A DNA stretch of 64,000 nt from Rhodocyclaceae bacterium (lineage in GTDB: Bacteria; Pseudomonadota; Gammaproteobacteria; Burkholderiales; Rhodocyclaceae): contig JAWKYX010000009.1 in assembly GCA_041396265.1 (NCBI GenBank), positions 11,251-75,250 of the forward strand, given 5' to 3'. The first letter of the stretch is position 1, and every line of letters begins with the position of its first letter. The notes under the pieces were generated by a model. That model ran no database searches, was not told the DNA's origin, and worked only from the letters and a program-made list of their open reading frames with translations. Positions 46,818 to 58,984 of the stretch are shown piece by piece. Position numbers and translations under genes: made by a program.

Positions 46818-49232
46818 GTTTCAATCCACGCCCCTCGTTGCCGAGGGGCGAAGCCCGCGTCACCACGGCCCGAAAATCCCGCCGATGCGCGTTTCAATCC
46901 ACGCCCCTCGTTGCCGAGGGGCGAAGCGCCACATCGGATTGTGAAGGCCGTCGCGGTCAATGCGGTTTCAATCCACGCCCCTCGTTGCCGAGGGGCGAAG
47001 CCATCGGGGCGCTCAACCCCAACGAGATCCGCGAGTACGTTTCAATCCACGCCCCTCGTTGCCGAGGGGCGAAGCGCTCGTAGAGGATCTTGGGCCGGCC
47101 GTCGGGCAGGTTTCAATCCACGCCCCTCGTTGCCGAGGGGCGAAGCTTGCGGCGGCATTCGTGGCGGCGGTATGGCTCAAGTTTCAATCCACGCCCCTCG
47201 TTGCCGAGGGGCGAAGCCCTTGCAACCGCGCGCCATGAATTCATCGAGCGGTTTCAATCCACGCCCGTTGCCGAGGGGCGAAGACGCCGATCCGGTGCGA
47301 GGGCTGAATCCACCGGGCACGCAGTTTCATCCACGCCCTCGTTGCCGAGGGGCGAAGCTTCACGGGGCCGTCGAGAAGTTCAAACAGCCATTCGAGCGAA
47401 TTTCTTGAATCCACGCCCCGTTGCCGAGGGCGAAGCGAAATCATCCGCATGGCCCGGTCGTGGAGTTACGCGGTTTCAATCCATGCGCCCCTCGTTGCCG
47501 AGGGGCGAAGCCGCCATCGGTTCGGCGCAAGCCCATCACCGTCTCAGCTTCATCCACGCCCTCGTTGCCGAGGGGCGAAGCGAACACCAAAGGACCAGAC
47601 GGCCACGCCAAACCCATGTTTCATCCACGCCCCTCGTTGCCGAGGGGCGAAGCAGTCCGAGCACAAACAATGCATCGAGGCCGGTCAATACCATCCACGC
47701 CTTCGCCGAGGGGCGAAGCTGTTGATGGGCCGTGCGAGGATCGAAATGGCGTCGAGGCGTGTTTTCCAAATCCACGCCCTCGCTGCCGAGGGGCGAAGCA
47801 CAGCGGCACGCGAATCAGTGTGGCCGGGATGCTGTTGTTTCATCCACGCCCCTCGTTGCCGAGGGGCGAAGCTTGTTCAAGCCGAGGAAGTCTGGCGCTC
47901 GGTGAGTCAGTAAGTTTCATCCACGCCCTCGTTGCCGAGGGGCGAAGCGGCCATGTCGGTGAGCTTGCCGGGCTCTGGGGTGTTTTCATCCACGCCCCTC
48001 GCCGCCGAGGCGAAGCGACATCCCCCAGGTGCTCGGTTTCGATCAGCGTGTTTTCATCCACGCCCTCGCCGCGCCGAGGTGCCAGCTTTGACGGCGGTTA
48101 ACGCATTGTCGGTCGAGCGGAGTTTTCATCCTCTCACGCTCCCCGTTGCCGAGGGCGAAGCAAAGAAAGGCTATCCGGACTGACGCATCAACACCCGGTT
48201 TCAACCACGCCCTCGCTGCCGAGGGGCGAAGCGCCCAAATCATTGCCGCCACCATTACGACGCCAGCACGGGGAGGTTTCAACCACGCCTCGTTGCCGAG
48301 GGGCGAAGCCGCGCGGTCTGTCGGTGGCGCCGGCGAGGTTTGTAACGTTTCAATCCACACGCCCTCGTTGCTGAGGGGCGAAGCACACAGGATGGCGCGC
48401 TCGGTGGGCTCCGGAAGCCAGCTTCGATCCACGCCCCTCGTTGCCGAGGCGAAGCCAGCGCAAAAAGCCGCGCGCCGCCTAAGCCTGTCGAAGTTTCCAA
48501 TCCACGCCCTCGTTGCCGAGGGGCGAGCGACAGCGGCACGGCCGCGCTGCGCACGGCCGTGCCGGCAGGTTTCAATCCACGCCCCTCGCCGCCGAGGGCG
48601 AAGCAGCCTTGCCAAAACGCACTGCCCTGGATTCCAGTCGATAGCCACGTTTCAATCCACGCCCCTCGTTGCCGAGCGAAGCATCGAACTGGAGTCTGTA
48701 CTGATGGCGAATGAAATCGTTTTCTGAAGTCCACGCCCTCGGCTGCCGAGGGCGAAGCTCGCATGCCGGCAGGATGAATGGCTGGGTAATTAATCCACGC
48801 CTCGTTGCCGAGGGGCGAAGCCGGTGACCGGCCATAATTGCCGCCACCAACATAGCCATCCACGCCCCCGCTTGCCGAGGGCGAAGCTCAGCCCGGCTCG
48901 GTGCCAGCGCCGACGATACCAATCCACGCCCTCGTTGCCGAGGGGCTACGACGATCGTGGCGCGCCGCTCATCGACATCGAGTTTAACCACGCCCTCGTT
49001 GCCGAGGGGGCTAGGCCGGGATACTTGCCGCTGCTTAATGCTTGCCGAAAACGTAGTTTCAATCCACGCCTCGTTGCCGAGGGCGAGTTTCCCGCCATGC
49101 GGATATCTGCAGAACGGATATCCAGGTTTCATCCACGCCCCCCGTTGCCGAGGGGCGAAGCCTGGGTTACTTGCTTGTGGAGTCGATGACGGAACGTTTC
49201 AATCCACGCCCCTCGTTGCCGAGGGGCGAAGC
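46818..49232 (-). CRISPR. Type I-C CRISPR array, about 34 repeats (37 bp) and about 33 spacers
   Basis: Plus-strand consensus GTTTCAATCCACGCCCCTCGTTGCCGAGGGGCGAAGC at roughly 70-75 bp period; minus strand ends ATTGAAAC; the first six and the last copy match consensus, most internal copies carry indels. Confidence 0.97.
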
Positions 49233-49420: not shown

Positions 49421-49711
49421 CTACAAGACGAGCGGGCCTTCGAAGTCGGTGGCGCGGAAGGTGCCGTGCTCTCGCACTTCGGCGCCGCGGCTGTCGGGCA
49501 GCCGGTAGAGGCGCAGGTTGTCTTCGTCGAGTTCGATTTCGGAGAGCAATCGCTGTTCGAGGGCTTCGAGCTGCATCCGGTCGATCTGGAACTCGAAGAC
49601 AGATTTCTGGACCCGTTGGCCGACACCTTCGCAGACCTTGGCCACGCGGCGCAGGCGACGACGACCGGCACGGGTTTCGGTGTTGATGTCGTAGCAGGCG
49701 ATGACCAGCAT
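49421..49711 (-). CDS. cas2: CRISPR-associated Cas2
   Basis: YDI...[12 protein letters not shown]...[15 protein letters not shown]. Confidence 0.97.
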
Positions 49712-49714
49712 GGC

Positions 49715-50743
49715 TTACCTCGTGAGATAGGGCGGGTAGTCGTGGGTTTCTTCGCGCAGGGTGCGGGCGAGCAGCCGGGCCTGGACGAGGGGGATGAGGC
49801 CAAGGGCGACCGGCTGGGCCAGCAGGGTGTGGGTGATCTGCTCTTGTTTGCGCTCCTGCCAGGCGACCACGACGGTCTTGCGGGCATCGCCTTCGAGCAT
49901 GACGGCGCCGCCTTCGCGGTGCTCGAAATCGTCTGCATGGATCTGGCCCCGGTTGATGAGGGTGAGCGCGAGGCGGTCGGCGACATGACGGAACTCTTCC
50001 ATCAGGTCGAGAGCGAGGGCCGCGCGGCCGGGGCGCAGGGCGTGGAGAAAGCCGACTTGCGGGTCGAGCCCGGCTGCCTCCAGCGCGGAGCGGCAGTCGT
50101 TCATGAGCATGCTGTAGAGGAAGGAGAGCACGGCATTGAAGCGGTCGCGGGGCGGGCGGCGGCTGCGGCCGTTCATCAGGAAGGCGTCGCGCATGTCCTT
50201 GCGCAGCAGCAGGTTGAGCGCGCTGAAGTATTGCCGCGCGGCTTCGCCTTCGAGGCCGCGCAAGGTGTCGAGGTCGGCTGCTGTGGGCAGTGCGCGCAGG
50301 CTGGCGGCCAGGTCTTTGGCGGTGCGGGTGATCTGGCTGGCCTCGGCGGCATCCTTGGCTTCGCGTGCACCACGCAGTAGCACCTGGCGGCTGTTGCGGA
50401 TTTTGCCGGCCACGAAGTTGCGCGCCACGGCGAGCGCGAAGGCTGGGTCGCGGGCCTTGTCGAACTGGGCGGCGCGCAACAACACGTTGCCGGAAACCGG
50501 GCCTTCGAGCCGCGCCTTGAAGCGGCCGTTGCCGTCGAGCATGACGAGCGATATGCCTGCGTCGGCAACACGGTGAATGAGGGGCGTGGATAGCCGGATG
50601 TTGCCAAGGCAGACGATGGCGCCGAGGTGGTGCAGCGGTACGCGCAGGCGGGTGTCGTGTTCGACTTCGACCCGCAGGGTGTCGTTGTCCAGGTGCAGGT
50701 AGCTGTCCGGCGTGGTGACGTAGAGCGTGTTGAGCAGTTGCAT
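49715..50743 (-). CDS. cas1: CRISPR-associated Cas1 (I-C)
   Basis: LNTLYVTT, GNVLLR, LRGLEGEAA..YF, RRPPRD..NA.LSFLY, LDLMEEFR. Confidence 0.97.
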   Translation of the reverse strand: MQLLNTLYVTTPDSYLHLDNDTLRVEVEHDTRLRVPLHHLGAIVCLGNIRLSTPLIHRVADAGISLVMLDGNGRFKARLEGPVSGNVLLRAAQFDKARDPAFALAVARNFVAGKIRNSRQVLLRGAREAKDAAEASQITRTAKDLAASLRALPTAADLDTLRGLEGEAARQYFSALNLLLRKDMRDAFLMNGRSRRPPRDRFNAVLSFLYSMLMNDCRSALEAAGLDPQVGFLHALRPGRAALALDLMEEFRHVADRLALTLINRGQIHADDFEHREGGAVMLEGDARKTVVVAWQERKQEQITHTLLAQPVALGLIPLVQARLLARTLREETHDYPPYLTR

Positions 50744-50745
50744 GG

Positions 50746-51372
50746 TCAGGCATCCGGGTCGAACAGATGGGAAGGGGTGTCGGCCAGGCGCGTCAGGGCG
50801 TCGGGTTGGCACAGGTCGCGCAATGAGCAGGCGTGGCAGCGGTCGTCGTTGACCGGCGGCGGGGTGCGCCGGGCGGCGAGCATCTGCCGTATCTCGCGGG
50901 TGGCCGATTCGACGCGCTCGCGCAGGGCGGGGGTGATCGATACGACCCGGCGCCGCTTCGATGTGGCGTAGAACAGCGCGCCTTCCGGCACGGGTTTGCT
51001 GGTCATCTCTTCCAGGCACAGGGCCTGTGCGGCCAGTTGCAGGTCGTCGCAGGCGGCGACGGCGGCCTTCTTGTTGCGGCTGCCGTGTTTGTACTCGACA
51101 GGGTAGGCGGTGCCGTCGGGCAGGAATTCCACCACATCGGCCTTGCCGATCAACCCGAGGCGCTCGCTCCACACCGGCAGTGCCCGCTCGACGCGCAGGC
51201 CGGGGCGTAGTTCCACGCCGGGTTGATCGACACGCGCGTGCACGGCTTGACCGCGCTGGGTGTAGAGGTTGTCTTCGAACACCTGTTCCAGATGGATCAA
51301 GGCCCACTGGCGCGGGCAATAGGCCCAGTGCTGCAGGGCGGACAACGGGATGAAATCGTCGCCGTCAGTCAT
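50746..51372 (-). CDS. cas4: CRISPR-associated exonuclease Cas4
   Basis: LQHWAYCPRQWAL, GKADVVEF, PVEYK, QALCLEEM, CHACSLRDLC. Confidence 0.96.
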   Translation of the reverse strand: MTDGDDFIPLSALQHWAYCPRQWALIHLEQVFEDNLYTQRGQAVHARVDQPGVELRPGLRVERALPVWSERLGLIGKADVVEFLPDGTAYPVEYKHGSRNKKAAVAACDDLQLAAQALCLEEMTSKPVPEGALFYATSKRRRVVSITPALRERVESATREIRQMLAARRTPPPVNDDRCHACSLRDLCQPDALTRLADTPSHLFDPDA

Positions 51373-51387
51373 TGCGCTTGAAGCTTC

Positions 51388-51422
51388 TGATTGCGTTGCT
51401 ATCATTGATAGCGTTGTTATCA
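51388..51422. promoter_or_regulatory. FitA-type operator half-sites between divergent cas4 and antitoxin
   Basis: TGCTATCA-T-TGATAGCG palindrome (51397-51413) with related half-sites TGATTGCG (51388) and TGTTATCA (51415). Confidence 0.65.
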
Positions 51423-51434
51423 AAGGAGTGGGTC

Positions 51435-51683
51435 ATGGCTGACATGGTGCTGAGAAATCTGGACGACGATCTGAAGCAGCGGCTGCGCGAGCGCGCGGCC
51501 AGGCATGGCCGTTCGATGTCGGCCGAACTGCGCGCCATCGTGGCGGAGGCGCTGTCGCGCCCCGAGCCGGCAGACCCGGTCGAGGAGTTCAAACGCCTCG
51601 CGGCCAAGGTGCGAGCCTTAAGCGCCGGGCGGCCGCAAACGCCCTCCGAGGAATTGCTGCGCCAGAGCCGGGACGAGCGATGA
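51435..51683 (+). CDS. FitA/StbC-like ribbon-helix-helix antitoxin
   Basis: AAGGAG RBS; MADMVLRNLDDDLKQRLRERAARHGRSMSAELRAIV; ATGA overlap with toxin. Confidence 0.9.
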   Translation: MADMVLRNLDDDLKQRLRERAARHGRSMSAELRAIVAEALSRPEPADPVEEFKRLAAKVRALSAGRPQTPSEELLRQSRDER

Positions 51684-52105
51684 GGTGGGTGGTCGATGCC
51701 AGCGTCGCTGCCAAATGGTTTGCGCCAGAGCCCGACGCGGAGGCGGCACAACGGATATTGGGGTACGAACTGTATGCCCCGGATCTGCTGTTCGCCGAAG
51801 TGGCCAATATCTTGTGGAAGAAGCAGCGGCGCGGCGAGCTGGCGGACGAGGTGCCCGAGATCGCCGCCCGCATGTTGCTGGGCATCGGCGTGCATGCGAG
51901 CCCCTGCGCCGACCTGATGCCCGAGGCGAGCGCGCTGGCGGCTCGCCTCGACCACCCCGCCTACGACTGCTTCTATCTGGCGCTGGCGGTGCGCCATGGC
52001 ATCGCCATGGTGACGGCAGACCGGCGTCTGGTCGCCCGCTGCCAGCAGCCTGACGCCGCCGATCTGCAGCAGTTCGTCCGGCCGCTGGCAGCGTTCGAGC
52101 ATTAA
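51680..52105 (+). CDS. vapC: PIN-domain VapC-family toxin
   Basis: [39 protein letters not shown] acidic tetrad. Confidence 0.93.
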
Positions 52106-52989
52106 CCCACCCGGCGCTGCAGGCTGACGCCGGCCGGCAGGGCCGCGTCGTCGATGCTGACGGCGTAGTCGGCGAAACTGCGCGGTACTTCCGCCTCGGG
52201 CTTACGTGCGATGCGAATGCGATCGAACAGGTCGTGGGCATGCGCGTTGCCCAACTCGGAATCGTGCTTGAACACGTACAGCCCGCGGGTGGACATCTCA
52301 CCGCGTGCGGCCGAGCGATCATGCTCGAACATGTGCTCCAGCGACTGCCACAGCAGTTCGAGGTCGTCATCGCTGAAACCGGTCTGCCTGGCGAGGAAGG
52401 ATGAGACGAAGCCGTGAGCGACGTAGATGCCGTAGGGCACGGTGTGCTTGCGGCCCATGGTGCGGTTGTCGCCTTCCTGCTTTTCCGCCTCGGCCTCGGT
52501 GGCCACCGCCATGCGGGTGATGGAATGCTCCAGCGCCACGACAGGATCGACCGAGCGAGCGAAGGTCAGCTGCACCGGGCCGCGAACCTGGCCGCAGTTC
52601 ACGCCGGTGGACATCACGGCGCCGAACGTGCGCACGTCGAAGAAATTGGCGCACATCCAGTCGCGAGCCTTGCTCACCGTGTCGCCTTTGCCCTTGCGCT
52701 TCTTGTCTTCGCCTTTCAGTTCGTCCTCGGCACCCACCGACACATAAGCGCGTTCGTGCGTGCGGTTGAGCACGGCCTTTTCCTTCACGTAGATCTCGAA
52801 AGGCGGCTCTTCGCCTTTGACCAGTCCGACGAAGTTGCGGACCTTGCGCTTGAGGGATACGTCGGTGACCAGTCCGTGACCGGATTCGGCATCGAGGCGT
52901 GGCAGGTTGCCGGCGTCCGGGTCGCCATTGGGGTTGCCATCCTTCACATCAAAGACGAGGACGAAGTCGTAGCGGTTGGTGAGTGCCAT
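52102..52989 (-). CDS. cas7: Cas7 (Csd2) backbone, type I-C
   Basis: [45 protein letters not shown]. Confidence 0.97.
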
Positions 52990-54734
52990 CAGAGGGTCTC
53001 CTCAAGGGGTTCGGTGGATTCGGCAGGGGTGGATTTGGTGAAGAAGGCCTGGCGCTGGTGGTAGTAGCCGAGGGCGAAGCGGCCCTGATCGGCGAGCGCA
53101 AGGTGTTTCGGGAAGTCGGACAGGCCGTCCATGATTTCGCCGATCGTCTTTTCGAAATTGACGACTCGGCCTGTCGGCAGCTTCTTGAGATGGGCGTTCT
53201 TCAATCGCAGCAGGGTCGTGAATACGGCCACCGGCGTGCTGGAGGCGGCGCCGTAGTAGCGATCGCGGATTGTCGCGTTGAGCCCCGGGCTGGCGGCTTC
53301 CTGGATGCGTTCGAGCACGGCGAAGAGCCGGCCGAGGCGGTAGGCCGGGTTGGCTTGGGTCGGGTCGAGCATGGGGCGATACTCCTTCTCGGAAGTCGGA
53401 TGGCGGGAAGCGGTCTGGCGGATCTGGCGATTGAGGCAGGCCTTGATGGCGGCTGCGCGCAGGGTGTTCACGTGCTGTTCCGCACGGCAGCGCTGAACGG
53501 CTGCGTTGAGCCAAGTGGGCGGAAACGGTACGCCGTCGAGAATCGCGCGCATGATGTCGCCGCCCAGCCGGGGCGGAATGTTGTCGGCCTTGTGCTGTAC
53601 GGCAATGGCCGTGAGCAGGCGGAACAGGCTGGGGAACTCCGGGTCATTCGGTCCGCGCGTAATCGCCAGATCGTCGAACCAGGCGGTGATGCGCCGGGCG
53701 ATCTCGCCCAGCGGTGCCACATGCCAGAAGCGGATCGCGATGCGCGCGGCGTTGGGCGCCAGCCCGAGCACGAAGAAGCGTGTCTCGCCCCGCGTGCCAT
53801 CGAATTTGCCGCTGTGCACCGCTTCGTACAGGGCGCGAACCTCGCCCGTGCGGGCATCGGGGTCGTCACCCTCGCCGAACAGGGTGGCGAAGATGTCTTC
53901 GACCGTGTCGGCCTTCTCGGCCCAGAACACGGTCGAGGCGTCGCCGACCTGGATGCGTTGGCGGGAGCCCTTGGCGAGCAGGTGGTTGAGCGCCGTGGTG
54001 TAGGCGAAGGCGGCGGCGGGGCTGACAGGGGCGTTGGCGCCTTGCTCCTTGCCGAACGAGCGGAAGGCGTCGAGGTTGAAGGACACGATGTTCGCGCCCG
54101 ATGTTTGTGCTCCCCAAACGCCCTTGATGGCGTTGTGCAGCCGCTCGGCGTCGCTGCTGCGGCCAGTCACGAGGCAGATGCCGCTGGCGTCGATCGGTGC
54201 CGTTTCGTGGCTGATGCCGTCGACTACCTCGGGGCGTTGGCACACCAGATCGGTGTCCGGCGCAATGCGAAAGCTCATTAGTGGATTGGTTTCGAGCACC
54301 TCGGGCCAGGCCGGTTGCGAGGCGAGTTCAGCAACGGGGTTGCGGCCGAGAAACGCCAGCACGGCGCGGATGGCCGGATCGTCCTGGGCGGGCAGGGCCT
54401 CGATCCGCTCCCGGAAGGCCGCCCGCTGCTGAACAATGCGCTCGGGCTTGCCCTTGGTGTCGATGCCGACGACGTACTCGGCGGTGTCCCACAGCAGATT
54501 GGCGGCGACGCCCGATGTCTTCTTCACGCCTTGCGGTACGAGAAAACGCGCTGCCACCTTTGTCTTGCCTTCGAGTTGCCGCGTGTCCTTCAGGCCGAGC
54601 AAGGCGCCATCGGCGTCGAGTTCGATGATGAACGGGATCTCCTTGTCCTCGAAGCCATAGGCCGGCAGCCGGCGGGCGGGGTCGGGATTGCGCTGCTTGC
54701 GTTGGTAGTAGTCATGCAATGCCTGAAGAATCAT
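52989..54734 (-). CDS. cas8c: Cas8c (Csd1) large subunit
   Basis: [54 protein letters not shown]. Confidence 0.96.
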
Positions 54735-55390
54735 CCCCGCACCTCGATGCCGTTGAGGTCGAGCACGCCGTGCTTGATGTTTGCGCGGAAGAAGGTCGGG
54801 CGCGGATCGGCGGGGTTGGAAAAGTCCATGTCGTGGAGCATCCAGCCCAGGTCGCCGTCGACCTCCGCGACCGGTGGCGGGCCAGCCTCGTCCGCGTCGA
54901 TCAGGCGGAATCGGGCGGCGAATTCGCGGCAGCCGAGATAGGGCTGATTGACGCATTGCCCCTTGGAGGCGCGGCGGCGAAACATCTCGGCGTACTTGGC
55001 AGCGGTGTCCTTGGGCGCGCGATCGGGCAGGAATTCCAGCTCCGCATGCAGCCGGTAGGCCACGTCACGCAGGATCAGGCCGGCGCGCTGTTGGCGCTCA
55101 TCCTCCACGTAGAGCGCCAGTTGCCCGCGCCCGGTGTTCATGGCCGTGGTGACGTTACGCGTCGAAATCACAGCGCCGACTTCGTTGCGTCGCACGCTGG
55201 TCCAGCGTACCGGCTTGAGCACTTCGATGCGTCGCACATGCCAGCGGATCGCTGGCTTCCACAGGATGCTCTCGAACACGGCGCGGGCAGCCGACGGCGT
55301 GATGAGGTCGTAGGAGACACGCTCGACTTTCATCTCCGGGCGCGTGAAGCAGGCGAAGTCGCCACCGACTTCGAGGCAGAATCGATTCAT
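54731..55390 (-). CDS. cas5: Cas5c (Cas5d) pre-crRNA processing subunit
   Basis: GDFACFTRPEMKVERVSYD..TPSAAR, QPYLGCREF. Confidence 0.97.
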   Translation of the reverse strand: MNRFCLEVGGDFACFTRPEMKVERVSYDLITPSAARAVFESILWKPAIRWHVRRIEVLKPVRWTSVRRNEVGAVISTRNVTTAMNTGRGQLALYVEDERQQRAGLILRDVAYRLHAELEFLPDRAPKDTAAKYAEMFRRRASKGQCVNQPYLGCREFAARFRLIDADEAGPPPVAEVDGDLGWMLHDMDFSNPADPRPTFFRANIKHGVLDLNGIEVRG

Positions 55391-55416
55391 GGTTTCATTC
55401 CTTGTCTCTCCCGAAT

Positions 55417-57833
55417 TCAAAACACCAGTGCTGCCGGATCGCCCGGCGCCCCTGCCGCATTCGCGCCGAGCACGTCGTCGTAGAACACATCCGAAGCCTG
55501 CACATACAGACCGGGGCATCCGCCGAGTTCCCGGATGTCGCCGCCTGCCAGCAGGCGCTGGATGTCGCGTTGGTACAAGGTGACGCCGTAGCGCTGCAGC
55601 TTGCGCAGCAGGCCGCGGTTCGGCCCGTCGCGCTCGATCTTGCCGACGATGGCGTCGACGTTTTCCGCTGCGTCCGGTCGCCGGTAGTTCACGATCACCG
55701 TGCCGCCGTCGTCGTTGTCGATCAGGCGGAAGGCCTCGGCGGCGTCACGAAAGCGCACCGCGCCGTGGTCGACGCGCAGCATGTCGCAGATGCCGCGGCG
55801 ATCAAGTTGGGCGTCGGCATACAGCTGGCGGAAAAATCGATCGAACAGCGCCAGGCCGAGCGGGTCATCGTTTGTTGTGCTTTGCCAAAGGGTCTTGCAG
55901 GTGTCGCGCGCCTGCCGCAGCAGACCGGGTGGCGCGGCTCGGAGGGCGGCACGAACACGTGCACCTCGCCGCCATCGGCCAGTCGTCCTTCGCGGTTGCA
56001 GCGCCCTGCGGCCTGGGCAATCGAGTCCAGCCCCGCCATGGCACGAAAGACCACGGGGAAGTCGAGATCGACGCCGGCTTCGACCAGTTGGGTGCTGATC
56101 ACGCGCACCGGTGGGGCTGCATCGCCGCGTGCAATCGCCGCGCGGCGTGAGGAGAGAGCGTCCTTGATGCGGGCGATGGTGTCGCTACGGTGCTGCGGGC
56201 ACATCAAGGCCGAGAGGTGGTAGAGGCCGTCGGGTGCGCGGGCCTTGAGCAAGGCGTGCAGGTCGCGCGCATCCTGGCGGTGGTTGACGATGGCGAGCGC
56301 GGCGGGCTGTGCGGCGATCCGGTCGGCGATGGCCGGCCAGTCTTCGCGCAGGTTGAGATCGGTCGGGCGGTGTATCCGGACGCGGCGCAACGCGTCATAG
56401 AGGGCGGGCACGTCGTCGATGATTTCGGTCACCGTGTCTGGGTCGAAGCCGCGCAGGTTCTTGCGCGCGTCAAAGCCTTGTGCGTGGGTCAGCGCCGGCT
56501 GGGTGGCGGTGCACAGCACGAGCGTGACGCCATAGCCCTCCACCAGCAGACGCAGCACGTCGAGCATGGGCTGCAGGAAGTCCACGGGCAGCAGTTGCGC
56601 TTCGTCGAGCACGATGACGCTGCCGACCAGGTTGTGCAGCTTGCGGCAGCGCGAGGTGCGCCGCGCGAACAGGCTTTCGAAGAGTTGGACGTTGGTGGTG
56701 ACGATGACGGGGGCGTCCCAGTTTTCGCAGGCGAGGCGGGAGCGGGCGGTTTCCTGGCGATCGTCGAGTTCGGCGTTGCTGTGGTGTTCGACGACGTTCT
56801 CGTCACCGAGCACGGCGCGGAAGATGTCGGCCGTCTGCTCGATGATGGAGGTGTAGGGAATGGCGTAGATGATCCGGCGCTTTTCATGCTCGGCGGCATG
56901 CCGCAGCGCGAAGCCGAGGCTGGCGAAGGTTTTGCCGCCACCGGTGGGGACGGTCAGCGTGAACACGCCGGACGGGCGAATCGCCTTCTCGCGGCACTGG
57001 CGCAGGACGCTGGCACGCAGGCGATTGACCGGTGTGCCGGCCGCGGCCGCGGTGAGGGTCGCCATGTAGGTGTCAAAGCGTTCCTTCAGGGTGGTGAGTG
57101 CTGCAAAGCCGTTGCGACGTGCGGCCTGGTCGCCATCCATGAAGGCTTCGGTGTCGAGGAAGTCGGCATCGACGAGGCACGAGAACTGCATGCGCAGCCA
57201 CAGTGCGAAGCTGCCGGGGGTGCCTGTTTTGTGGTCGGTGGGTAGATTTACCAGCGAGGGCAATGGCAGGTCGGGGTCCAGCAGCGTGGCAGGCGGTGCC
57301 GCCAGGCGCGTGTCGTGAAGTTCTCGCTGCGCGTCCTCCCCAGCCAGACGCTCGTTGAGGCCCTGGTGCCAGTTGTCGAGCCCGGCGTGGTGGCCGGCGA
57401 TCAGGTAGCTCAGGACATGGGCGACGAATTGTCCGTGCGGTCCGTGGGTCTGTGTCAGATAGTCGCGCGCATGCAAGGCACCAGCGGCCGAATGGGTCTT
57501 GTCCTTGCCGGCGACACGGCCTTCGATGTGGGCGTCGGCATCGTGTGATTGCCGAATGTAGCGTTGAAACCCGCGACGGTACTTGCCCAGGTCATGCCAG
57601 AGGCCTGCAAATGCCAGCCAGTCTGCGGCCATGAATGGATGGCCGAATGCGCTGGCCAGCGTCGACACACTGGTCAGATGGTCGTCGAGTGCGTGGCCGC
57701 TCGTGGTGCCGTCCGAAGCGATGCGCAGGTGGGCCAGGGGGATGTCGATCATGGTCGGCTTGTCGTTCGAGGGATGCGCTGCATTGTCCGCGCCATGAGG
57801 CTCACCGAGTGAGCCCGTCGATTTGTCAGCCAT
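55417..57833 (-). CDS. cas3: Cas3 HD nuclease-helicase, single frameshift near 55935
   Basis: WHDLGK, CLVDADFLDT, PTGGGKT, DEAQ, QAAGRCNREG; C-terminus (PPGLLRQA...FRLID...RKLQRYGV) continues in a shifted frame; alternative start 57752. Confidence 0.93.
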
Positions 57834-58800
57834 AGGCTCTGCTCATCTGCCGCATCTCCTCCGCCACCACCGCCCGCAACCCCGCCGGTCCCAGCACCTC
57901 GCAGTGCCGCCCGTGCTTGAGGATGTCCATCATCAGCTCGCGGTGGTCGGCGTAGGGTATCTCCAGAAGGTAGTGGCCGTCGGCATCGAAACTGCCGCGT
58001 TGGTCGGGATGCCAGTGTTCGGCGGCGACCCAGCGGGCGCGTTCGGGGGAGAAACGCAGGCGGGCGGTCTGGACGGCGGTGCCGGCGAAGATGCCGTAGC
58101 CGGGGCCGAGGATGGTGTCGAGGCGGGCGTCGGGGATGTCGTGGGCGGGGGTTTTGAGCAGGTGGACGTGGCGGATGCTGTCGACGGCGAAGTTGCGCAG
58201 CTCGCTGCGCAGGTGGCACCAGGCGTCGAGGTACCAGTTTTCGCGGTAGTGCACGAGGCGCTGGGGGGAGATGTCGCGCTCGCTTTCTTCGCCCTTGCCG
58301 CGCGCGAAGTAGCGGATGGCCAGGCGTTTGCGCTGCAGCAGGGCGGCGCCGATGGCTTCGAAGTGGGTGAGCTTGGCGCTGCGCTTGCCGATGCCGACGA
58401 TGAGCACGCGCTTGCGCACTTCGTCGGCGGGGTGGCGGGCGGCGCCCATGAGGGCGTTGAGGCGGGCGACCAGCGGGGCGACATGCGGCGCGAGGATGCC
58501 GCCGGGGTCGAGGTTGGCGAGCAGGTGCTGCATGGTGAGCAGGGCGTGGATCTCTTTGTCGGAGAACCACATGCCGGGCAGTTCGATCTGGCTGCCGACG
58601 GTTTGCGTGGGGTCGATGCGGTAGCCGGCCAGTTCGCGATCCCAGACGATGGGGGTGTTCATGGTGTCGCGCAGGAAGGCCAGATCGCGCTTGAGCGTGG
58701 CGGGCGACACTTCGAGTTGATCGAGCAGCATCTGGCGGCTGACGCTGCGCCGCTCATCGAGCAGGCGGCGGATGCGGGCGAGGCGGTCGGTTTGGCTCAT
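57826..58800 (-). CDS. HTH-WYL domain transcriptional regulator (YafY/PafB-like)
   Basis: wHTH LEVSPATLKRDL, ISPQRLVHYRENWYLDAWCH..LRNFAVDSI, C-terminal EVLGPAGLR. Confidence 0.94.
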   Translation of the reverse strand: MSQTDRLARIRRLLDERRSVSRQMLLDQLEVSPATLKRDLAFLRDTMNTPIVWDRELAGYRIDPTQTVGSQIELPGMWFSDKEIHALLTMQHLLANLDPGGILAPHVAPLVARLNALMGAARHPADEVRKRVLIVGIGKRSAKLTHFEAIGAALLQRKRLAIRYFARGKGEESERDISPQRLVHYRENWYLDAWCHLRSELRNFAVDSIRHVHLLKTPAHDIPDARLDTILGPGYGIFAGTAVQTARLRFSPERARWVAAEHWHPDQRGSFDADGHYLLEIPYADHRELMMDILKHGRHCEVLGPAGLRAVVAEEMRQMSRAYG

Positions 58801-58984
58801 GCGCAGGCTCGTCGGACGAGAACGCAAAGCTTATCGGGTATTTGCAGAATTCACAGTGGTTATGCATCAAGATTTGCCGATGACGGCCGTGTGACATCGG
58901 CGCGCGCAGATGCCGCGTCCTTGGGCAGGGTCGTGGACATGGGCGCGAGCGATTCGCTGCCGCCTCGGTGGGGCGGCGGCGGGG

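Follow-up and report, generated by a model that had tools for sequence, protein, structure and literature searches.

Interchangeable toxin-antitoxin cassettes recur at the cas7-cas4 junction of type I-C CRISPR-Cas loci

The seam between cas7 and cas4 in type I-C CRISPR-Cas loci is a recurrent cargo slot with interchangeable toxin-antitoxin (TA) cassettes, and the cassette described here is not a one-off insertion. It lies in a window of 64,000 nucleotides (the whole stretch of DNA that was analyzed) from contig 9 of a Rhodocyclaceae-like MAG that is 76% complete. The window holds a complete type I-C locus on the minus strand, consisting of cas3, cas5d, cas8c/Csd1, cas7/Csd2, cas4, cas1, cas2, and an array, without cas6, and the TA pair sits in its middle on the plus strand. 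Sequence comparison with related loci indicates that the window cassette is a long-term resident of the slot, inherited and transferred with the cas locus and diverging roughly in step with it. The features of this region, in window coordinates, are as follows.

46818-49232, minus strand: CRISPR array; its 37-nt repeat, read on the cas strand, ends in ATTGAAAC (repeat search)
49421-49711, minus strand: cas2, a 96-aa ORF 71-90% identical to the PF09827 genes of related loci
49715-50743, minus strand: cas1, start MQLLNTLYV (Pfam PF01867, 9e-102)
50746-51372, minus strand: cas4, the first adaptation gene (Pfam PF01930, 7e-22, and PDDEXK_1)
51365-52102, minus strand: 245-codon open frame antisense to the TA pair, its ATG overlapping the cas7 stop (TAATG) and its stop 5 nt inside cas4
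51378-51422, plus strand: TA promoter TTGAAG-16-TATCAT and two tandem 17-nt palindromic operator-like repeats, within the gap to cas4
51435-51683, plus strand: RHH antitoxin, VapB-type with a FitA-like ribbon-helix-helix, 82 aa (Pfam PF22513 FitA-like_RHH, E 1.3e-15)
51680-52105, plus strand: PIN-domain toxin of the VapC family, 141 aa (Pfam PF01850 PIN, E 1.6e-14)
52102-52989, minus strand: cas7 (Csd2), the last interference gene (Pfam PF05107, 2e-108)
52989-54956, minus strand: cas8c (Csd1) (Pfam PF09709, 9e-184, match from residue 80)
54731-55519, minus strand: cas5 (Cas5d), start uncertain (Pfam PF09704, 4e-38)
55722-57833, minus strand: cas3, HD nuclease and helicase (Pfam Cas3_HD, DEAD, and Cas3-like_C_2)
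57826-58827, minus strand: HTH-WYL-WCX regulator gene (Pfam WYL, 2e-22; WCX, 1e-17; HTH_11)

The TA pair is in itself ordinary. Open reading frames and Pfam matches agree in placing an RHH antitoxin and a PIN toxin between cas3-cas5-cas8c-cas7 and cas4-cas1-cas2, as the first-pass annotation had done, and the antitoxin stop overlaps the toxin ATG in the motif ATGA. The antitoxin has a second Pfam match to Arc (4e-7), and its closest PDB sequence is the Mnt repressor (8e-5). For the toxin, the closest PDB sequence is that of the archaeal PIN protein PAE0151 (1e-12); the PDB sequence search (E ≤ 0.01) returned only PAE0151 and PAE2754, both archaeal, with FitB absent from the matches, and no equivalog was found in NCBIfam. 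Two features of VapBC systems, a PIN domain with four acidic residues and a small DNA-binding antitoxin encoded upstream in the same operon, were found. The earlier label of FitAB/VapBC suits a VapBC-type PIN/RHH pair with a FitA-like antitoxin, but it does not extend to the toxin, which is not close to FitB. Judged by its sequence, the toxin would be a generic VapC-type PIN protein, the FitA likeness being confined to the RHH domain of the antitoxin.

The pair also looks intact and functional, and it appears to be under purifying selection. The PIN acidic quartet is complete: D6, E40, and D96 do not vary among 28 homologues, and conservation of D114 is at least 90%. In comparisons with four cas-resident relatives, the toxin has a dN/dS of 0.09-0.23 and the antitoxin one of 0.04-0.13, and the dS of the TA genes is about that of cas7 in the same genome pairs.

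The cas strand is open along the whole cassette, which raises the question of whether the 245-codon frame (read from 52102 to 51365) is the real gene and the TA frames are its shadows. Such an annotation artifact could account for the observation that the frame is uninterrupted between the end of cas7 and the beginning of cas4 not only in the window but also in loci L003, L004-6, L009, L103/104, L107, and L108/109. We nevertheless consider it very improbable: both plus-strand frames have strong independent Pfam matches, the catalytic residues are conserved, dN/dS is low, the cassette has its own conserved promoter and operator-like core, and toxin homologues number in the thousands. The antisense frame is, moreover, also open in 5 of 14 non-cas homologues, as GC-rich codon usage predicts, compared with seven of the eight cas-resident RHH-PIN cassettes. 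All single-cassette RHH-PIN loci keep it open, down to 60% toxin identity and even with an alternative toxin. It is open in only two of nine antisense ParE cassettes and in three of five antisense MazF cassettes at the cas4-cas1 junction; among 24 sense cassettes, two have an open opposite strand. Stop-free cas-strand frames through an antisense TA were also seen in L008, L010, L018, L043, and L067. Base composition could have left the bridging frame open as a shadow, or the frame could be translated as a bridge. The counts are suggestive, but GC-rich codon usage and common ancestry could produce them as well; translation through the cassette, which would keep the operon translated and avoid Rho polarity, is possibly under selection.

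At its downstream end, the cassette abuts cas7 directly. The letters TTAA serve both the toxin stop TAA (52103-52105) and, on the minus strand, the cas7 stop (52102-52104), and the 4-nt overlap of stops described earlier can thus be read in the sequence at 52102-52105. At the other end, the antitoxin is divergent from cas4 (ATG at 51372, in frame), with a gap of 62 nt between the two genes. A hairpin scan found no terminator-like site between the toxin and cas7, the only hairpin called being the operator palindrome. An IS scar could not be accommodated either, since the cassette leaves 0 nt toward cas7 and 62 nt toward cas4. The absence of both terminator and scar, as first noted, is thereby borne out.

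The gap to cas4 contains the cassette's control region. Its tandem palindromic repeats (51388-51422) overlap the sigma-70-like -10 element and lie 16-50 nt upstream of the cas4 start, and a promoter scan of the gap detected no separate sigma-70-like promoter for cas4. Eleven relatives, cas-resident ones as well as two non-cas ones, retain a core, GCTATCATTGATAGC / GATATCATYGATATC, at 25-35 nt before the antitoxin ATG. Because the core is kept in both settings, we infer that the predicted operator is the TA's own control element, overlapping its -10. The distance between the antitoxin and cas4 start codons is smaller still in L103 and L107, at only about 30 nt.

Several further observations concern the surrounding locus. 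The HTH-WYL-WCX gene abuts cas3 in the same orientation, and its product is likely a transcriptional regulator of the cas operon. The true start of cas8c may lie further downstream than annotated. Only 7 of about 33 repeats in the array match perfectly, six of them at the end far from cas and the seventh adjoining cas2; the others carry 1-3-nt deletions, mostly in homopolymer runs, and the cas genes are intact. The pattern looks more like an unpolished long-read assembly of repetitive DNA than like true decay.

The history of the window cassette can be followed in close relatives. Among 60 related genomes, four of the same genus carry the window's I-C locus (Cas7 92-99% identical); each of them has a TA pair at this position, likewise antisense. 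One of them has the window's pair. The other three (L004, L005, and L006) have, in the same slot, an antitoxin that is 79% identical over its full length together with a PIN toxin only 42% identical, which suggests replacement of the toxin under a conserved antitoxin and raises the question of cross-neutralization.

The toxin has more than 2,400 homologues in a collection of 5.8 billion proteins. We sampled 11 of them, at 56-89% identity, and inspected their contigs. Seven lie between I-C cas7 and cas4, all convergent with cas7 and divergent from cas4, and several of these share the 4-nt overlap of stops; the remaining four are at unrelated non-cas sites. Toxin and antitoxin identities roughly track those of Cas7 and Cas4. 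The first-pass annotation had held that its proposal would fail if, among other things, the same TA were found at unrelated loci in close relatives and were absent from orthologous cas loci, and the opposite pattern was found, with a pair in every same-genus locus and most sampled relatives in the slot. A recent stray insertion was likewise ruled out by the occurrence of a TA in all same-genus I-C loci and by its co-divergence with cas. The co-phylogeny of VapC and Cas7 that had been put forward for testing was borne out only in part. In the toxin tree, the subclade of the window (five rows) is confined to cas loci, but a single clade of all cas-resident rows is rejected (AU p 0.008), so that the toxin family must have switched several times between the slot and ordinary sites on the chromosome. 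Distant homologues (≤47% identity) never adjoin cas genes in 300 genomes of the order. Strict TA-Cas co-phylogeny is thus ruled out for the toxin family, as it is for cassette types on the Cas7 tree, where these turn over fast.

To place the window in a broader frame, we used a Cas7-based scan with one genome per species, which yielded 80 related I-C loci (Cas7 identity 63-93%); the slot counts rest on the 73 of them that have cas4 downstream of cas7. A canonical cas7-cas4 gap (≤72 nt) is present in 28, whereas 45 have an insert of 237-1398 nt. The statement that cas7 is directly followed by cas4 in canonical I-C loci accordingly describes the former but not the latter. According to BLAST clustering, with Pfam searches on representatives, 36 of the 45 inserts are of TA type and belong to about ten families, so that the survey for TA pairs at this junction, proposed at the outset, uncovered a recurrent slot. 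The most frequent is HicA with a small partner, in sense orientation, at about 14 loci, followed by ParE with an Unstab_antitox antitoxin, in antisense orientation, at eight. A DUF433/DUF5615 cassette occurs at five loci, DUF4258 with an MqsA-like partner at two, and a DUF2281/PIN cassette at two; the further families are RHH/PIN, MNT/HEPN, RHH/ParE, HigB/HigA-like, and DUF2442. The 68-aa partner of HicA has no sequence match in Pfam, NCBIfam, or PDB and is HicB-like by position only.

Both orientations occur, and about 26 of the 36 TA-type cassettes are in sense. Because of this majority, convergent transcription, which had been suggested to uncouple the two cas modules in the window, is ruled out as a generally selected feature of the slot. 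In the sense cassettes, stops and starts overlap those of cas7 and cas4 and the small HicA partners are without a recognizable DNA-binding domain, an arrangement that suggests integration into operon expression.

Nine of the 45 inserts are not of TA type; they are Bro-N proteins, four-helix-bundle proteins, or unknowns. Five loci (L059, L061, L069, L076, and L081) have a Bro-N-domain protein of about 293 aa in the slot, and three (L060, L076, and L083) have a four-helix-bundle protein (TIGR02436/TIGR04258); these two proteins are recurrent non-TA cargo. In an even sample across the phylum (400 genomes, with 24 evaluable I-C loci), the slot holds Unstab_antitox/ParE in sense orientation in five loci and another small gene in one, and 18 loci are canonical.

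The remaining junctions of the operon are used far less. No inserts were found at cas5-cas8 (0/78), cas8-cas7 (0/79), or cas1-cas2 (0/66); cas4-cas1 has inserts in 7 of 68 loci, mostly antisense MazF/RHH. At cas3-cas5, only two or three true TA or NYN inserts were found in 72 loci despite a natural spacer of about 200 nt. Apparent inserts at this junction in 14 loci proved to be mostly an extra C-terminal Cas3-like segment, true ones being limited to L019, L042 (Phd/PIN), and L076. A conserved segment of about 110 aa (FRTAAEKFRLID...LRKLQRYTV) follows Cas3 in L010, L019, L036, L042, L048, L049, and others and is not seen as such in the 703-aa Cas3 of the window; it could represent a C-terminal domain that only some Cas3 proteins have or a separate small gene.

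Cassettes in the slot are exchanged frequently. On a Cas7 tree of 78 loci, the cassette type needs at least 32 changes, and tight, well-supported clades carry differing cassettes, such as L019 and L025 (ParE) versus L024 (HicA) and L047 (HicA) versus L048 (HigBA); basal I-C loci have no insert. Sliding identity profiles suggest that the adaptation side can have a somewhat different history from the interference side, which would fit with module recombination at the seam. Stacking and decay were also observed. In L011 (6885-8287), a sense HicA pair adjoins cas7 and an antisense RHH-PIN pair adjoins cas4, the older PIN toxin having a premature stop right after the catalytic glutamate, and in L040 and L043, an antitoxin-like gene alone remains. 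In L036 (6892-7032), a short ORF resembling the Cas4 N terminus (ISALQHYAFCPHQ) lies directly after cas7, upstream of the TA, and may be a duplicated junction left by cassette insertion. Apart from the slot, nucleotide identity within the groups L019/L025/L024 and L047/L048/L051 falls to 30-50% over the end of cas5 and the initial part of cas8c, compared with 85-95% elsewhere in the operon; the 5' half of cas8c is a hypervariable or recombined segment of the large subunit.

We hypothesize that the cassette stabilizes itself and the flanking cas locus against deletion, and, arguing from the addiction common to all TAs, we put the chances of this proposal at about even. As in other type II TAs, the labile antitoxin would need continuous synthesis to restrain the stable toxin, and a deletion of the cas locus that included its middle would leave the cell to be poisoned by the toxin. 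Protein-based addiction of this kind would stabilize the cassette and the surrounding CRISPR-Cas genes whether or not that is its selected purpose. The diversity of families in the slot points to a property common to all TAs, not to a particular enzyme activity, and the rarity of inserts at cas3-cas5, together with the tight coupling of sense cassettes, argues for more than mere tolerance. In the window, the RHH antitoxin is predicted to autoregulate the pair at the palindromic operator over the cassette's -10. Because this operator is so close to the cas4 start and no separate cas4 promoter was detected, transcription of cas4-cas1-cas2 would have to cross the TA operator and run antisense through the TA, a geometry from which TA autoregulation and expression of the adaptation module likely influence each other. 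Point mutations and small deletions in cas3, the Cascade genes, or the array are common escape routes, and a TA in the center of the locus gives no protection against them.

Persistence, purifying selection, turnover, and position are, however, also expected of selfish cassettes at a place where insertion is tolerated. The seam may simply be where modules recombine and where an insertion spares translationally coupled genes; TAs would land there, resist loss through their own addiction, hitch-hike on mobile I-C loci, and be replaced, with no selected effect on CRISPR immunity and any stabilization incidental. We regard this as a real possibility, though not the probable one. It agrees with the many cassette changes on the Cas7 tree and the tight clades with different cassettes, with the adaptation side being able to differ in history from the interference side, with the presence of both orientations, about ten unrelated families, and non-TA cargo (9 of 45 inserts), and with the remnants and pseudogenes in L040, L043, and the L011 toxin. 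The movement of the toxin family between the slot and non-cas sites and the absence of an insert from basal and many phylum-level I-C loci (TA pairs in only 5 of 24 of the phylum sample) point the same way and count against a guarding function. The rarely used spacer at cas3-cas5 does not, since intergenic availability then fails to explain the preference for cas7-cas4; nor do co-divergence with cas down to about 60% toxin identity under purifying selection and the close coupling of sense cassettes to cas7 and cas4, which suggests integration in operon expression. The present data cannot separate stabilization of the locus from such passive residence.

Two further roles seem unlikely to us. 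A coupling of immunity and dormancy has been hypothesized previously (PMC3506569), and in the window, a drop in antitoxin upon infection, an anti-CRISPR, or cas transcription shut-off could at once release PIN-mediated growth arrest and derepress cas4-cas1-cas2, so that the cell would buy time and raise spacer acquisition. This idea of dormancy or abortive infection coupled to adaptation, which we rate as improbable, would fit the clustering of cassettes directly upstream of the adaptation genes, the antisense operators that abut the cas4 start in the window, L103, and L107, and the lack of a detected cas4 promoter. It is, however, a purely geometric argument; most slot cassettes are sense and have no operator beside cas4, and some cassettes are at cas4-cas1 or cas3-cas5. 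A more encompassing view, which we find equally doubtful, is that the seam has been selected as a place where exchangeable protein toxin modules dock and safeguard CRISPR-Cas. Sense cassettes without a DNA-binding domain of their own would then report loss of cas-operon transcription, antisense cassettes would set their operator on the only route to cas4-cas1-cas2 and gate spacer acquisition, and ribosomes translating the open cas-strand frame would accompany RNA polymerase across the antisense cassette.

Maintaining a CRISPR-Cas locus is costly, and such loci are lost often. How they persist has, to our knowledge, been answered experimentally so far only for RNA-based CreTA modules. With its many natural with/without pairs and swapped cassettes, the I-C cas7-cas4 slot is a test bed for asking whether type II TAs stabilize immune loci, couple arrest to spacer acquisition, or hitch-hike. 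Annotators should expect small genes between cas7 and cas4 of type I-C loci and should not label them cas genes.

Among known systems, the closest to the pair itself are VapBC modules with an RHH antitoxin, of which FitAB of Neisseria gonorrhoeae is the structural archetype. Common to both are a PIN domain with an acidic quartet and an overlapping upstream RHH antitoxin, which in the window matches the FitA-like_RHH Pfam family, as well as palindromic operator-like repeats at the promoter. The putative operator half-site of the window, TGCTATCA, presumably resembles the FitAB site; a literature search on the FitAB half-site turned up nothing specific. The window pair differs in having a toxin far from FitB in sequence, with PAE0151 as its best solved relative, in having operator half-sites that are adjacent rather than widely spaced, and in being set inside a cas operon.

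CreTA, a Cascade-repressed toxin with a CRISPR-like antitoxin RNA, safeguards type I loci, and the first-pass annotation had drawn on it for comparison. The likeness is a loose one: a toxin module inside a type I cas locus could put a price on losing that locus, but no CRISPR-repeat-like element is found near the TA. A search of the window for the CRISPR repeat or its 3' handle, allowing up to 2-3 mismatches, gave no match outside the array, and a CreTA-like mechanism is thus ruled out. The window TA is all protein, with no psi-repeat or mini-array, and its repression would be through the RHH antitoxin instead of Cascade, so that the cell would not be made dependent on Cascade itself. With the TA cassettes of chromosomal integrons and defense islands, the slot has in common small, interchangeable, self-stabilizing two-gene cassettes at a defined site, with stacking and decay as in L011; unlike in integrons, no integrase or attC-like sites were seen at the cas7-cas4 seam, where exchange appears to proceed via the flanking cas genes and module recombination.

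TA pairs in cas loci and the idea that they serve maintenance are already known: Garrett and colleagues described vapBC and other TA pairs within the cas cassettes of Sulfolobales and suggested that they aid locus maintenance, as reviewed previously (PMC4390879). A literature search found no specific description of a TA slot at I-C cas7-cas4, that is, of one I-C junction with about ten TA families in about half of the related loci, with co-divergence and rapid swapping. As in Sulfolobales, the window has a protein TA pair placed between functional cas modules that recurs in related loci. It differs from them in that it belongs to a bacterial type I-C system and to one defined junction, occupied in about half of the related loci, and in that this slot takes about ten TA families in either orientation, with co-divergence and turnover that can be measured.
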